Shown: piece after piece, positions 5,260 through 39,000 of the stretch
Numbering within the stretch: position 1 is the stretch's first letter
Layout of the letters: each line of letters starts with the position of its first letter
From: an uncultured Nitrososphaerota archaeon
GTDB lineage: Archaea > Thermoproteota > EX4484-205 > JAAOZO01
Direction: 5' to 3'
Assembly (NCBI GenBank): GCA_964408285.1
Contig: CAYOYV010000006.1
Coordinates: forward strand, 11,274 to 75,273
Length of the DNA stretch: 64,000 nt
Program-made: the position numbers and the translations under genes
The notes under the pieces: model-generated
The model's input: the letters and a program-made list of their open reading frames with translations, nothing else
Told to the model about the DNA's origin: nothing
Databases searched by the model: none

Positions 5260-6159
5260 ATGATTGAGAGCGTGATCAGAATGCAAGGGTTGACGAAGTT
5301 CTATGGAAAGCAGAGAGGAGTCATTGATCTTGACATGGAGGTTCAGAAAGGAGAGGTTTTTGGTTACCTGGGGCCGAACGGAGCCGGCAAGACTACGACC
5401 ATTAGGTTGCTATTGGATCTAATTCGACCGACAAGAGGGAAAGCGACGATCTTCGGATTGGATGTGAACGAACAAGGATTGGAAATCAGGAAACGCGTGG
5501 GTTACATTCCAGGGGAGTTGGCGATGTATGAAAACATGAGGGGTAGGGACCTCCTGACATATTTCGCTCACTTGCGGGACGGAGTCGATTGGGAGTTCGT
5601 TGAGGGAATGGCCAAAAGACTTGACTGCAATCTCTCTCAGCCTATCCGCTCACTCTCCCACGGTAACAAGCAGAAGATCGCGGTAATTCAAGCCTTCATG
5701 CACAGGCCAGAGCTACTGATCCTTGACGAGCCGACGACCGGCTTGGACCCCTTCATGCAGAGGGAGTTCTACAGTTTGATTGCAGAGGCAAAGGAAGATG
5801 GGAGGACCGTCTTCATCTCCTCACATATATTGCCGGAGGTAGAACGCATGTGCGACCGAGTTGGCATATTGCGTGCGGGAAAGCTGGTGACGGTGGAGGG
5901 TGTGAAGGCTTTGAAGGAACGAGCCTTGAGGCACTTGGAGATTCACTTCGCGGAGCAAGTTCCAAAAGACGCTTTCACAGGGATAACCGGCATCCGCGAT
6001 ATCACGGTTGAAAATGGTGTAATGCACTGCACTGTAGTGGGATCTTTGGACGCTGTGATAAAGGCTGCCTCAAGATTTCGAGTGGAAAACGTCATAACTC
6101 AAGAGCCAAGCTTGGAGGAGATATTCGTGTCATACTATGGGGAAGGTGACCGAACATGA
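5260..6159 (+). CDS. ABC transporter ATP-binding protein
   Basis: Walker A GPNGAGKTT, LSHG signature, ILDEPT Walker B; ATG 5260 is the likely start. Confidence 0.92.
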   Translation: MIESVIRMQGLTKFYGKQRGVIDLDMEVQKGEVFGYLGPNGAGKTTTIRLLLDLIRPTRGKATIFGLDVNEQGLEIRKRVGYIPGELAMYENMRGRDLLTYFAHLRDGVDWEFVEGMAKRLDCNLSQPIRSLSHGNKQKIAVIQAFMHRPELLILDEPTTGLDPFMQREFYSLIAEAKEDGRTVFISSHILPEVERMCDRVGILRAGKLVTVEGVKALKERALRHLEIHFAEQVPKDAFTGITGIRDITVENGVMHCTVVGSLDAVIKAASRFRVENVITQEPSLEEIFVSYYGEGDRT

Positions 6160-27258: not shown

Positions 27259-27533
27259 TCTCTGTTGGAAGAATATGCAAGAAATTGGCAGGAAGAGATT
27301 CCGGGCAGAGGTGCGTGATCATCGACGTATTGGACACAAACTTCATAATGATTACTGGCCCAAAAAAGATCACAGGAGTCAGAAGGAGAAAGGTGAACAT
27401 GAATCATGTCTTGCCGCTTGGGAAATCAATAAGAGTGAGGAAGAATGCCTCGGACGATGCAGTTGCCTCTGCGCTGGAGCGGAGGAAGCTAATACCATTC
27501 ATGAAGGGTGAGGATGTTGAACCTGCTGAATGA
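27240..27533 (+). CDS. rpl14e: 50S ribosomal protein eL14
   Basis: GRICKKLAGRDSG and GVRRRKVN motifs. Confidence 0.93.
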   Translation: MAQLALISVGRICKKLAGRDSGQRCVIIDVLDTNFIMITGPKKITGVRRRKVNMNHVLPLGKSIRVRKNASDDAVASALERRKLIPFMKGEDVEPAE

Positions 27534-28521
27534 GCTGAGAAAACCTAGGAGGCTTGTCATAAGGGAAGAGTCAACGACATCTTGGGATTATGGCTGGAAC
27601 CCGAATCTAAGACGATTGGATCAATTGGTGGACTCTGGCGTAATAGTCCTTGACAAACAGAGCGGCCCCACCAGTCATGATTTTGTGGCAACCCTGAAGA
27701 GACTCCTGAATCTCAAAAAAGCCGGTCACAGCGGGACCCTTGAGTGAATTCGGGGAAATCCTGGCGTGACTGGAGTACTAATCGCGCTTTCCGGAGCAGC
27801 CACAAACCTGGTCCCATACTTGCATAGGCTAGGAAAGGAATATGTCGGAGTTGGGGAGCTGCATTCCGACGTATCAAAATCCAAACTTCAGGAAGCGATG
27901 GGTATATTCATAGGGCAGATATTCCAAAGACCCCCTGTTAGGGCTTCGGTCAGCAGGAAGTTAAGGACAAGATCTGTCTTCTACTTTGACCTTTTGGAAT
28001 ACGAGGATAGACGATTTCTTTTCAGGGTTGGAACGGAAGCAGGTACATACATAAGGAAATTGATACATGACCTTGGGCTGTTGACTGGATCGGGAGCTCA
28101 TATGGTTCAGCTTCGAAGGACTAGGGACGGCCCCTTCGGCGAGTCTCAATCACATGGGATGTGGAGCATCGCCTTGGCCCTTGAGATATATAGATCACGA
28201 AATGATGAGACCGAGCTAAGGAAAGTAATACTACCGATAGAATCGGCAATTGCTCTATATCCATCGATTTATATCAAGGACGGTGCAGTTTCTGCAGTGT
28301 GTCATGGCGCTAATCTCTCGATTGGTGGCGTCTCGTCATTTGAGGAACCTGTGGAAAAGGGAAACGTTGTTTGCGTGAAAACTCTCAAGGGCGAGCTAGT
28401 GGCAATGGCCAGGTCAGAGAAGGATTCTCATGGTCTGCTAAATGACAGAACTGGTCTAGCTGCAATCACCGAGAGGGTTCTAATGGATAGAGGGCTATAT
28501 CCAAAAATGTGGAGACAATAG
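27514..28521 (+). CDS. cbf5: H/ACA pseudouridine synthase Cbf5, interrupted by a 15-nt BHB intron (exons 27514-27742, 27758-28521)
   Basis: LDK.SGPTSH, GHSGTL[D]PGVTG, QRPP, GTYIR and a PUA domain; removing the intron gives a 330-aa ORF. Confidence 0.93.
27743..27757 (+). other. BHB mRNA intron in cbf5 (AGTGAATTCGGGGAA)
   Basis: GGGA-CCCU-[UG|A]...GGGG-[AA|A]-UCCU; excision restores the GAT codon of the catalytic Asp. Confidence 0.9.
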
Positions 28522-28526
28522 GCCTA

Positions 28527-28541
28527 GAGAAATCTTAATAT
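28527..28541 (+). promoter_or_regulatory. BRE/TATA promoter of the tRNA gene
   Basis: GAGAAATCTTAATAT about 25 nt upstream of the tRNA 5' end. Confidence 0.55.
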
Positions 28542-28564
28542 CACTTGAGGTTTTGGAATTCCAC

Positions 28565-28695
28565 GCCGAGGTGCCGAGTTGTCAAACACGGCAGGTGCCC
28601 GAATCTGGCCAAGGGGCAATGGAGCCTAAGCCTGGAGTGTCGTAGATAGCTTGTGAACCTTCGGGTTCTTATGGGTTCGAATCCCTTCCTCGGCG
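28565..28695 (+). tRNA. tRNA-Ser(GGA) with three putative introns (positions 6/7, 29/30, 37/38)
   Basis: Acceptor GCCGAGG/CCTCGGC, discriminator G, T loop TTCGAAT, long variable arm GAACCTTCGGGTTC; removing 28571-28594, 28620-28629 and 28638-28647 gives anticodon arm CAAGC-CTGGAGA-GCTTG. Confidence 0.8.
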
Positions 28696-28897
28696 CCTCC
28701 TTCTCTCTGTTAGTTTATTTCGTGCCCCTTCAGTTGAGGCCCCCCAATAGCGTTCCAATTTGCCTCAGTTCAAGTGTTAGTCTTCCAGTTCTGCAGTGCT
28801 TTGTACATGAGAATTAGCTATTCGAGCTGCGACGTATTTCCAGTAATGGATTTGCTTTATATCATCGCACGATGTTTTTTCTCGGAGGAGGATTCGA

Positions 28898-29881
28898 TTG
28901 ACACCCCAAAGAGTCAACTTCGGGGTTGACATGGGCCCCTTCCTTGGACTCGAAAGAAGCTTCTCGTTCTTAGCTAAGGCCGCAATGGAAACGGAAGGTC
29001 TCGGTTTTGACTCAGTCTGGGTTCCGGACCACGAGGTCGATCCGCTCTCGACTCTGTCATTTCTCAGCTCAGTCACAAAGAACATGAAGTTGGGCACATG
29101 TGTACTGATACCAGACCATAGACATCCGGCTTTATTGGCTAGAGAGATAGCTACTCTGGACAATCTCTCAGAAGGACGGTTGATTCTTGGACTCGGGGCT
29201 GGAGAAGGCAAGCAAATGTTCGGCACTCCGATTGACAGACCTGTTGCAAGGATGTTGGAGACGATCACTATAATCAAGAAACTGTGGCAGCATCCGAAGG
29301 TGACGCACCACGGCGATTTCTGGGAAATAAGAGACCATTCCCTAGAGTGCAACCCGCTGCAGCGACCTCATCCCCCGATCTGGATTGGCGCAAGTGGACC
29401 GAGAATGCTCGAGATAACAGCGAGGCATGCAAATGGCTGCTTTGGCCCTCAGCTTATCCCACAACAGTATCGAAATTGGTTGAACAGGCTGCACAGAATC
29501 GCGGGCGAAATCGGCAGAAACCCTGAAGAGATTATCCCGGCGCATTTGCCCTTCACAAGTATTTCAAAGGATCATGACCTGGCAGTCAAATGGATCGAAC
29601 CTTATGTGAGATGGTTCCTGGTATGGGCTTCTAAGCCTCCAAGCTCACTGCAGCAAATACTCGGTTACAAGGAAAGGTGGGAAAAAGAGGAAGATGTGCC
29701 GCGAGAAGCAATCGAGAGATGCTTCATTGTGGGAACACCAGAGGAGTGCACTGACAGAATAGAGGAATTTGTTCACAACGGCGCAAGCTACTTCGTGCTA
29801 GCGATTAGGGCTCCTGATGTAAAGAACTACTTGGAATCACTTGAGCTATATGCCAGAGAGGTATTGCCACACTTCAAGTAA
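28898..29881 (+). CDS. LLM class flavin/F420-dependent oxidoreductase
   Basis: GFDSVWVPDH, LDNLSEGRLILGLGAG and PPIWIG motifs. Confidence 0.9.
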   Translation: MTPQRVNFGVDMGPFLGLERSFSFLAKAAMETEGLGFDSVWVPDHEVDPLSTLSFLSSVTKNMKLGTCVLIPDHRHPALLAREIATLDNLSEGRLILGLGAGEGKQMFGTPIDRPVARMLETITIIKKLWQHPKVTHHGDFWEIRDHSLECNPLQRPHPPIWIGASGPRMLEITARHANGCFGPQLIPQQYRNWLNRLHRIAGEIGRNPEEIIPAHLPFTSISKDHDLAVKWIEPYVRWFLVWASKPPSSLQQILGYKERWEKEEDVPREAIERCFIVGTPEECTDRIEEFVHNGASYFVLAIRAPDVKNYLESLELYAREVLPHFK

Positions 29882-37944: not shown

Positions 37945-39000
37945 GTGGAACTTTTTGAGTTGAACACCTTGAGGGTGCTGGTCACGGGTGGTGCCGGATT
38001 CATAGGGTCCCACATCGTCGAATTCTACTCGAATAGGGGTGACGAGGTCGTCGCTCTCGACAGCCTCGCAAGGGGAGAGATGCTAAGGAGGGAGGAGTAC
38101 GGCATTCAGAGCAATTGGGAATACCTCAGGTCTCTGAAGAACGTTACTCCTGTGAAGGGAGACATTCGAGACTTCGAAAAACTGAAGGACGTTGCAGCTG
38201 GCTGTGAAGTGATCTTTCACGCGGCAGCACAAGTGGCGGTTACATCATCAGTGACGGATCCAGTCCTGGATTTTGAGATAAATGCGAAGGGCACTATAAA
38301 TGTCCTTGAGGCATCTAGGTTACATGACGCCTCAGTGGTCTTCACTTCAACTAACAAAGCCTACGGCGAGAACGTCAACAAGATTCCAGTTACGGAGAAG
38401 GAGAAGAGGTACGAATATGCTGATCCGAAATACAATCGGGGAATACCTGAGGAGTTCCCAATAGATCTGACAGGTCATAGTCCCTATGGGTGCTCGAAGT
38501 TGTCAGCGGACCTCTATGTTCAGGATTATGCGCACACCTACGGCCTCAAGACTGGAGTATTCAGACAAAGCTGCATCTACGGCGAAAGGCAATTCGGAGT
38601 CGAAGATCAGGGATGGGTAGCTTGGTTTGTAATCGCCACGTTAAGCAATAGACCCATAACGATCTATGGCGATGGAAAGCAGGTTAGGGATGTTCTATAC
38701 GTCAAAGATCTAGTAACGGCCTTTGATGCGTTCTTGAACAGCCATTTGAGGCACGAGGTCTTCAACACTGGCGGCGGCCCGAAGAACACTCTTTCCTTAT
38801 TGGAGCTTCTGGACATACTCGAGGAATTCACACGAACTAGGCCGAGGATTTCGTTTTCGTCCTGGAGGCCTGCAGATCAGAAGGTCTATGTCTCCGATAT
38901 CTCCAAGATGTTCAGATTGCTCCACTGGAAGCCTCTCGTGGGGCCACAGGCTGGCGTAAAGAAGCTAGTTGAGTTCTTCAGGAAAAAATCAACATCTTAG
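37945..39000 (+). CDS. NAD-dependent nucleotide-sugar epimerase (CDP-paratose 2-epimerase-like)
   Basis: TGGAGFIG, AAQVAVT, STNK, YGCSK and EDQGWVAWF motifs. Confidence 0.88.
   Translation: MELFELNTLRVLVTGGAGFIGSHIVEFYSNRGDEVVALDSLARGEMLRREEYGIQSNWEYLRSLKNVTPVKGDIRDFEKLKDVAAGCEVIFHAAAQVAVTSSVTDPVLDFEINAKGTINVLEASRLHDASVVFTSTNKAYGENVNKIPVTEKEKRYEYADPKYNRGIPEEFPIDLTGHSPYGCSKLSADLYVQDYAHTYGLKTGVFRQSCIYGERQFGVEDQGWVAWFVIATLSNRPITIYGDGKQVRDVLYVKDLVTAFDAFLNSHLRHEVFNTGGGPKNTLSLLELLDILEEFTRTRPRISFSSWRPADQKVYVSDISKMFRLLHWKPLVGPQAGVKKLVEFFRKKSTS

Follow-up and report, generated by a model that had tools for sequence, protein, structure and literature searches.

Does the stretch at 28565-28695 of the window (by which we mean the whole 64,000-nt piece of DNA that was analysed) hold a working serine tRNA gene, and if so, how might its three very short insertions, one of them within the acceptor stem, be removed? 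The locus lies between a cbf5-type pseudouridine synthase gene, which ends at 28521, and a luciferase-like monooxygenase gene, which starts at 28898, and standard tools pass over it: on the raw 64-kb window ARAGORN called no tRNA and Rfam gave none at the gathering threshold, and in a permissive Rfam scan of 28300-28950 a T-loop fragment was the sole tRNA match. When 28571-28594, 28620-28629 and 28638-28647 were excised by script, ARAGORN recognised a tRNA-Ser(gga): its acceptor stem is a perfect 7 bp, anticodon stem and variable arm have 5 bp each, the T stem contains a single U-U mismatch, and the discriminator is G73 at 28695. Excision of the first two insertions alone gave a Ser(gga) call with a 10-nt canonical intron. 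The spliced form combines a long variable arm, a serine anticodon, a 7-bp acceptor stem and G73, as a class II tRNA-Ser should; G73 and the long variable arm are identity elements of tRNA-Ser. The stretch 28565-28695 is thus a real tRNA-Ser(GGA) gene, probably an essential one, with three very short introns.

Anatomy of the locus

All the elements of the gene lie on the forward (+) strand. A putative promoter box of the BRE/TATA-like kind (AAATCTTAATATC, 28530-28542) stands at its head, and similar boxes precede other tRNA genes: by eye, A/T boxes with a TTAA core occur about 23-29 nt before the mature 5' end in those genes, and G002, a relative of the same class, has a near-identical box ahead of its own Ser(GGA) gene. 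The box is followed by a proposed 5' leader (28565-28572), made up of a copy of acceptor positions 1-7, GCCGAGG, plus a U; in a rival reading, 28565-28570 would be exon 1. In the reading we prefer, exon 1 (GCCGAG, tRNA positions 1-6) occupies 28573-28578, and its positions 1-4 pair with 28589-28592 in the central helix of intron 1. This intron (28579-28594) has 16 nt, lies at site 6/7 and is of the HBh' type; the rival drawing gives it 24 nt (28571-28594). Exon 2 (28595-28619) carries positions 7-29 of the cloverleaf, that is, the end of the acceptor stem, the D arm and the start of the anticodon stem. Intron 2 (28620-28629, 10 nt) sits at 29/30, and its helix is formed by GGGC (28614-17) and GCCU (28624-27). 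Exon 3 (28630-28637, positions 30-37) holds the anticodon GGA at 28634-28636, intron 3 (28638-28647, again 10 nt) lies at the canonical site 37/38 with a central helix CUG/UAG, and exon 4 (28648-28695, positions 38-73) supplies the 3' strand of the anticodon stem, the variable arm, the T arm, the 3' acceptor strand and the discriminator G. On the reverse strand just downstream of the gene (28796-28870), the SNORD98 model gave a weak hit resembling a C/D box (15 bits, E 6.3), which is probably due to chance.

All three introns are relaxed BHB forms. In the drawing of intron 1 that uses the inner copy of GCCGAG, the central helix GCCG/CGGC has four Watson-Crick pairs out of four, and is accompanied by a bulge AG-U, an inner helix UGU/ACA and a bulge AG-G (the dash marks the splice site); there is thus a 3-bp inner helix h' and no h (HBh'). 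The central helix of intron 2 likewise has 4/4 pairs, one of them G-U; its 5' site lies inside a 6-nt hairpin loop and its only bulge is the 3' one, AA-G. Intron 3 employs the anticodon stem as h, with a 3' bulge AU-A and a 5' site inside an 8-nt loop, and its 3/4 central pairs fall under what published classifiers score as 'relaxed' (bioRxiv 2026.10.13.758758, section 4.8). As in BHB introns, the predicted splice sites lie two bases 3' of the strands of a 4-bp central helix, and removal restores a cloverleaf that matches the orthologues. The initial annotation had proposed a tRNA-Ser(GGA) with introns at 6/7, 29/30 and 37/38, the helices GCCG/CGGC with AGG bulges, GGGC/GCCU and an imperfect CUGG/GUAG, and one T-stem U-U mismatch. 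This description stands: the spliced form is a clean cloverleaf with exons near-identical to those of orthologues, the three sites are supported, the helices are present as drawn (the last with 3/4 pairs), and the mismatch is seen in the ARAGORN cloverleaf.

The position of the first intron deserves some comment. Placing it at 7/8 was tried and rejected, as the central helix would carry mismatches. A 7-nt direct repeat, AGGTGCC, found at 28569-28575 and 28593-28599, borders a 24-nt insertion, so that a 24-nt removal has 8 equivalent registers; only the 6/7 register yields a 4-bp central helix. The repeat resembles a target-site duplication, and may be just the acceptor copy together with a chance identity of positions 1-3 and 9-11. 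Since the comparable Leu and Met cases (see below) have no such repeat, we record the resemblance without reading an origin from it.

Orthologues and the intron load of the genome

The assembly comprises 1.82 Mb in 46 contigs, is 93.7% complete and is found in metagenomes of freshwater and other sediments. Neither blastn-short over the whole assembly, with the spliced form as the query, nor spliced alignment over 232 candidate regions brought up a second Ser(GGA) gene. The initial annotation had allowed for a decayed copy existing beside an intact Ser(GGA) gene, and this provision loses its footing in the failure of both searches to turn up another copy in an assembly of that completeness. In 731 long ORFs, UCU and UCC are used often, at 24 per 1000 codons taken together. 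Across the gene, the contigs of runs X3 and X7 show 0 differences, and a contig from run X5 differs downstream alone, at 28767, 28779 and 28797. That this is a single-copy, working tRNA-Ser(GGA) gene, which would read UCU and UCC and be driven by its own promoter, forms one part of the joint explanation that we put forward below.

Another X5 contig (record 8, 849 nt) belongs to another organism: it matches 28594-28638 (exon 2, intron 2 and exon 3) gaplessly with 5 differences, and its flanks differ on both sides, which suggests a further relative with a 10-nt intron 2.

Five orthologues from the sister family f4 (genus g6; L002, L003, L004, L005 and L007) have near-identical exons and a single canonical intron of 18-28 nt, introns 1 and 2 being absent, so that the latter stand out as clean insertions. 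In the window's own family, f1, a search with the D-arm exon pattern matched 0/5 genomes, the D arm being different there; a T-arm BLAST match located the orthologue of G003 (genus g2), a Ser(GGA) with a 13-nt canonical intron alone. Exon 2 is 100% identical over 27 nt to the G024 orthologue. The changes seen by eye in the variable-arm and acceptor pairs relative to the orthologues are two-sided, as expected of working tRNAs, and the position of the T-stem U-U mismatch is a G-C pair in the five f4 orthologues.

The three introns differ in their distribution. Every orthologue has an intron at 37/38, of 11-28 nt. A class-wide pattern search of 26 genomes found an insertion at 29/30 also in G002 (11 nt), G007 and G009 (18 nt each), and all of these end in GCCUA[A/C/U], which comprises the central helix's 3' strand and the bulge. 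Because these three genomes have homologous 29/30 insertions with a common 3' part, intron 2 is an inherited intron that has been shortened to 10 nt in the window's lineage. Intron 1 has no counterpart in any orthologue examined; among the genomes searched it was found in the window's genome only, and a single sequence offers no covariation for its motif.

The Ser(GGA) genes of these relatives are themselves heavily interrupted. That of G002 has three insertions, at 29/30, at 37/38 and in the T loop. Those of G007 (L076) and G009 (L077) show, by eye against G003, four apparent insertions: 13 and 17 nt in the D loop, 18 nt at 29/30, 12 nt at 37/38, and 19 and 21 nt in the T loop. A passage of PMC8450103 states three introns per tRNA gene as the maximum outside Asgard archaea, and four is one above the 'up to three' stated for the non-Asgard archaea; for the Asgard, up to five per gene are reported in bioRxiv 2026.10.13.758758.

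The rest of the genome looks much the same. Over the whole assembly, ARAGORN called 20 tRNA genes, several of them with dubious anticodon or intron calls, and the Rfam tRNA model gave 17 above its cut-off. With a script that tolerates long gaps, the tRNAs of the relative G024 were aligned to candidate regions, and about 30 loci were recovered; isotypes and anticodons were read by us from the alignments, several labels being our own reading, and the script misses tRNAs with no standard T loop and may be a few bases off at the boundaries. Two or three short insertions are found in many loci, for example the initiator Met (30, 16 and 22 nt), Leu(GAG) (26 and 18 nt), Glu(CUC) (11 and 16 nt), Thr(CGU) (11 and 12 nt), and Ser(UGA) has a 9-nt canonical intron. 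Among 26 introns that comparison alone had delimited in the 21 best loci, the splicing register gave 4/4 central pairs in 14 and at least 3 in 19, against 15/520 (2.9%) and 24.8%, respectively, in shifted controls; the 7 of 26 with at most 2 central pairs probably have misplaced boundaries. Introns of 9-12 nt are thus routine in this genome, a point that the initial annotation had missed.

Two of these genes merit separate mention. The tRNA-Ser(UGA) gene (G000:C15, minus strand, ~38278-38376) has a 9-nt intron that nearly repeats the preceding anticodon-loop bases; all four central pairs form, two as G-U, and the orthologue in G024 is intron-free. The ranges published in PMC4090602 and PMC2738675 begin at 11 nt, and this intron falls below that minimum. 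The initiator tRNA-Met gene (G000:C18, minus strand, ~5627-5772) is a second three-intron gene, whose introns lie at 7/8 (30 nt), in the D loop (16 nt) and in the T loop (22 nt), and it too has an acceptor-strand copy in its leader.

Short introns are found outside tRNA genes as well. The neighbouring cbf5 gene (27508-28521, +; Cbf5/TruB pseudouridine synthase) contains at 27743-27757 a 15-nt insert of BHB style that includes a stop codon and breaks the catalytic Asp codon between its bases 1 and 2 (GTL-DP). This is the position of the crenarchaeal cbf5 intron described in PMC2738675; in 2009 that intron was reported to be lacking in Thermoproteales, Cenarchaeum, Nitrosopumilus and Korarchaeum. 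The cbf5 stretch was matched in 14 of the 26 genomes of the class, the window's own included, and in all 13 matched relatives the reading frame breaks, or meets a stop, at that codon, the inserts measuring about 13-15 nt. A mini-intron of the same style is present in 14/14 matched genomes, and we counted it among the points in favour of the explanation put forward below.

The acceptor-strand copy and the proposed removal of intron 1

The hexamer GCCGAG occurs twice, at 28565 and at 28573, and this duplication turned out not to be peculiar to the serine gene. In 5/5 genes of this genome in which the central helix of an intron engages the acceptor stem, namely Ser GGA (6/7), Leu GAG and initiator Met (7/8), and Gln CUG and Gln UUG (10/11), a copy of the 5' acceptor strand with at least 6/7 identities lies 8-11 nt upstream; such a copy was found in 2/23 other genes with defined 5' ends. 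Fisher's test gives 1.8e-4 when 2/24 is used, and about 2e-4 in a hand recount with 2/23, for a five-gene class that was defined after the pattern had been noticed. The Gln genes of relatives kept the copy in 5/5 cases (G001, G002, two genes in G003, and G005) with differing flanks, which makes 7/7 Gln genes with both copies across three genera. A Gln-pattern match in G011 was dropped, as it does not resemble a tRNA. Searched class-wide, the initiator 7/8-intron pattern returned only the gene of the window's genome and matches that we took for chance, and the Leu pattern had G002 as its sole match. The tRNA set of G024 has no acceptor-proximal introns, and hence offers neither examples nor counter-examples.

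The G002 tRNA-Leu gene (L098, G002:C32) has a GCGGGGG copy 7 nt before the true acceptor strand and no 7/8 intron; in its orthologue in the window's genome, copy and 7/8 intron are both present. The lone copy may be the relic of an intron loss, or may predate the intron.

By eye, the upstream copies start about 22-27 nt after the TTAA core (26 nt for the Ser(GGA) leader), and ordinary tRNAs start 23-29 nt after it. The upstream copy, being at the usual distance of a tRNA start, is thus predicted to form the first bases of the transcript. Pair probabilities were computed for the five genes with two forms of the precursor, one that includes the leader copy and one that begins at the true 5' strand. 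In the leaderless form of all 5, the acceptor stem forms and the probability of the central helix is at most 0.01; with the leader, which then occupies the 3' acceptor strand, the central helix reaches 0.99 for Ser, 0.12 for Leu, ~0.5 for Met, ~0.75 for Gln CUG and ~0.45 for Gln UUG. In Ser(GGA), the pairing between leader copy and 3' acceptor strand has a probability of ~1.0, and the central helix of intron 1 falls from 0.99 to 0.01 when the leader is left out. Only one assignment is nested, that of the leader copy to the 3' strand and of the true strand to the intron; the other would be a pseudoknot. According to this folding model, the upstream spare copy probably lets intron 1 fold for removal. 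The initial annotation had taken the GCCGAG repeat as an ambiguity between a 24-nt intron and an 'alternative' 16-nt one. It was right that both drawings give the same tRNA; the repeat itself is better described as a recurrent design, and of the two drawings it is the 16-nt intron, with a mature 5' end at 28573, that we favour over the 24-nt one.

The enzymes that such a pathway would call for are encoded in the genome. There are two EndA paralogues, each with both domains. The 194-aa protein aligns full-length to 2cv8 (Sulfolobus tokodaii; E 2e-45), including the Tyr/His/Lys residues and the loop segment, and also to the catalytic subunits 3p1z_B and 3ajv_B (Aeropyrum pernix) and 2zyz_B (Pyrobaculum). 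Its Y..H..K residues are spaced by 8 and 30-31 residues, the same spacing as in the MKA enzyme numbering given in PMC5829648, and its region 'GKPIGVPKPKNF' aligns with the Crenarchaea-specific loop. The 217-aa paralogue lacks the catalytic His. From these alignments, the EndA belongs to the (alpha-beta)2 type with a Crenarchaea-specific loop, with one predicted catalytic and one predicted structural subunit. RtcB (561 bits) and an archaeal RNase P RNA (175 bits) are present. Among named records with an EndA, the closest (67-70% identity) are MAGs that bear the labels Nitrososphaera sp., Thaumarchaeota and Candidatus Brockarchaeota. A relaxed-specificity splicing endonuclease, as the initial annotation had anticipated, is what the two-subunit EndA and its loop-bearing catalytic subunit point to. 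That this EndA should be unusually permissive goes too far: its catalytic subunit can be aligned over the whole length with crenarchaeal enzymes of solved structure, and relaxed motifs are already among the known substrates of (alpha-beta)2 enzymes with the specific loop, according to PMC5829648. Ordered splicing, which the same annotation had read from the introns, is not called for either, as the motif of intron 1 is independent of the others, and the helices of introns 2 and 3 coexist in a local fold of 28610-28654, with probabilities of 0.6-0.9 and ~0.46, respectively. In the same fold, the terminal UAA of intron 2 replaces positions 27-29 in the anticodon stem. In folds of the whole precursor, and in every splicing intermediate, the central helices of introns 2 and 3 have a probability of ~0; long-range mispairing dominates, and we judged these folds uninformative as to splicing order. 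On the folding models there would be no need for a fixed order.

We infer the transcription start, the cleavage sites, the succession of steps and the leader's role as follows. The gene's own promoter would yield a precursor starting at about 28565. The two-subunit (alpha-beta)2 EndA would cut two bases past each strand of the 4-bp helix, and RtcB would join the exons. The central helix of intron 1 would borrow acceptor bases 1-4, for which the far stronger acceptor stem competes; because the acceptor stem would otherwise capture these bases, the gene would carry a second copy of the 5' acceptor strand (28565-28571). This leader copy would pair with the 3' acceptor strand, so that the body stays folded and the true strand (28573-28578) is freed for the splicing motif; the same pairing may tether the 6-nt exon 1 to the body after cutting. 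EndA would then excise the 16 nt at 28579-28594, and RNase P would trim the 8-nt leader, leaving the mature 5' end at 28573. Introns 2 and 3 would be minimal bulge-helix-loop versions of ordinary introns. Taken as a whole, this explanation, in which a single-copy, promoter-driven, working gene has three introns spliced by EndA and RtcB and a leader copy that enables the removal of intron 1, seems to us reasonably likely.

The same functional gene can also be read with a 24-nt first intron (28571-28594), the upstream GCCGAG being then exon 1 and the second copy a by-product of the insertion. Such an intron would give the identical spliced product with no need for RNase P trimming, and it agrees with the position of the upstream copy at the usual tRNA start distance from the promoter box, with the 24-nt length of the insertion relative to the orthologues and its 7-nt direct repeat, and with the ability of GCCG at 28565-68 to pair with CGGC, giving AGG/AGG bulges. 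The computed ensemble, however, has the upstream copy paired with the 3' acceptor strand (~1.0) and the central helix made by the downstream copy (0.99); in the 24-nt drawing, 17 mostly unpaired bases, rather than an inner helix, would come after the 5' bulge, the simultaneous pairing of the inner copy with the 3' strand would be a pseudoknot, and the retention of both copies in 7/7 Gln genes of three genera would be left unexplained. We regard it as rather unlikely as a description of the splicing; it may hold for the origin of the insertion, since the upstream copy stands where the 5' end lay ancestrally. One might also suppose that introns 2 and 3 are spliced and the 5' insertion stays in the mature tRNA as an additional hairpin at 7/8, 28565-28571 then serving as the acceptor strand, and the minimum-energy fold of the precursor does consist of an acceptor stem made with the upstream copy plus a hairpin at 28572-28593. 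A retained arm is extremely improbable in our view: the element has the geometry of a splicing motif (4-bp helix, 3-nt bulges, inner helix), the same layout in the Leu, Met and Gln genes ends in a conserved register, no orthologue has such an arm, and an insert at the 7/8 corner of a tRNA would generally disturb the core.

Nor does it seem that the locus is a decayed tRNA copy with junk insertions, the Ser(GGA) being supplied from the unassembled part of the genome. Such decay would account for the U-U mismatch in the T stem and for the weak helices of introns 2 and 3, and a genome 93.7% complete in 46 contigs leaves room for another gene. It is nonetheless very unlikely, when set against the absence of any other Ser(GGA) gene from the blastn-short and spliced-alignment results, exons near-identical to those of the orthologues with two-sided changes in the stems, three insertions in exact splicing register, the maintenance of intron 2 in three other genomes, an intact promoter, and a gene that is invariant across four metagenome populations while its flank varies; moreover, most tRNA genes of this genome look alike in this respect. 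We thus keep to the spliced, working gene with a leader copy. It is a broader matter whether a leader-encoded stand-in for the 5' acceptor strand, which would occupy the 3' strand, hold the tiny first exon in place for ligation and then be removed by RNase P, is a general and selected device of archaeal tRNA genes for introns that borrow acceptor bases; we put this at slightly less than even odds. If so, the 5' leaders of pre-tRNAs can carry structural information for splicing, and leader copies with no intron, as in the G002 tRNA-Leu, would mark the past loss of an intron from spliced, untrimmed RNA.

Comparison with known systems

Some features of this lineage have consequences beyond the gene itself. 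Standard tRNA finders fail in it, ARAGORN's 20 genes, several of them dubious, being all that it reports for a 1.8-Mb genome. Introns of 9-10 nt are near the smallest size that offers a 4-bp helix and a cut site, and provide a natural test of the minimal substrate of the endonuclease. How an intron can sit in the acceptor stem, when that stem should out-compete the splicing helix, may find a simple explanation in the recurrent leader copy. In the literature that could be searched, including the 'leader' passages of reviews, no description of a leader copy of the acceptor strand came up.

The closest parallel is found in the Thermoproteales, where, for instance, the tRNA-Pro(UGG) of Pyrobaculum islandicum has introns at 25/26, 37/38 and 56/57, as described in Yoshihisa 2014 (PMC4090602). 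Like the three-intron genes of that order, the present one has one canonical and two non-canonical BHB-type introns, and the genome shares with theirs a heterotetramer-type EndA with the specific loop and a high genome-wide intron load. The gene works like Thermoproteales genes and lies outside that order, in a lineage of sediment MAGs whose closest named records carry the labels Thaumarchaeota and Brockarchaeota. Its introns, of 10, 10 and 16 nt, are at or below the 11-129 nt range given in the review (PMC4090602), and, in contrast to the three-intron genes there, one of them engages the acceptor stem and is accompanied by a leader copy of the acceptor strand. Some Thermoproteales tRNAs do have an acceptor-stem intron, at 3/4 (Sugahara 2008, as cited in a passage of PMC4090602); it likewise lies within the 5' acceptor strand, but the site here is 6/7, and the reviews searched for 'leader' make no mention, in the passages so retrieved, of an upstream acceptor copy for the 3/4 introns.

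In a published tRNA-intron survey of another phylum, most genes are likewise interrupted, often repeatedly, and missed by standard finders, and the sites likewise fit the BHB register far above chance; the median intron there is of 22-23 nt, whereas many are of 9-16 nt here, and the few acceptor-stem cases were grouped as 'other'. A looser likeness is to split and permuted tRNAs, in which leader and trailer pair to build the BHB (Randau 2005; Soma 2007; via passages of PMC4090602 and PMC4033280). In both situations, flanking RNA that is not part of the tRNA would create the structure needed by the splicing enzyme. The flanks of split and permuted tRNAs pair with each other, whereas the leader proposed here would mimic an exon strand and take up that strand's partner, leaving the real strand free for the motif. 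Archaeal tRNA genes with several introns are, in sum, already known; the present gene adds one from a sediment lineage that has had little study, with introns of near-minimal size and a recurrent, proposed leader stand-in for the acceptor strand.
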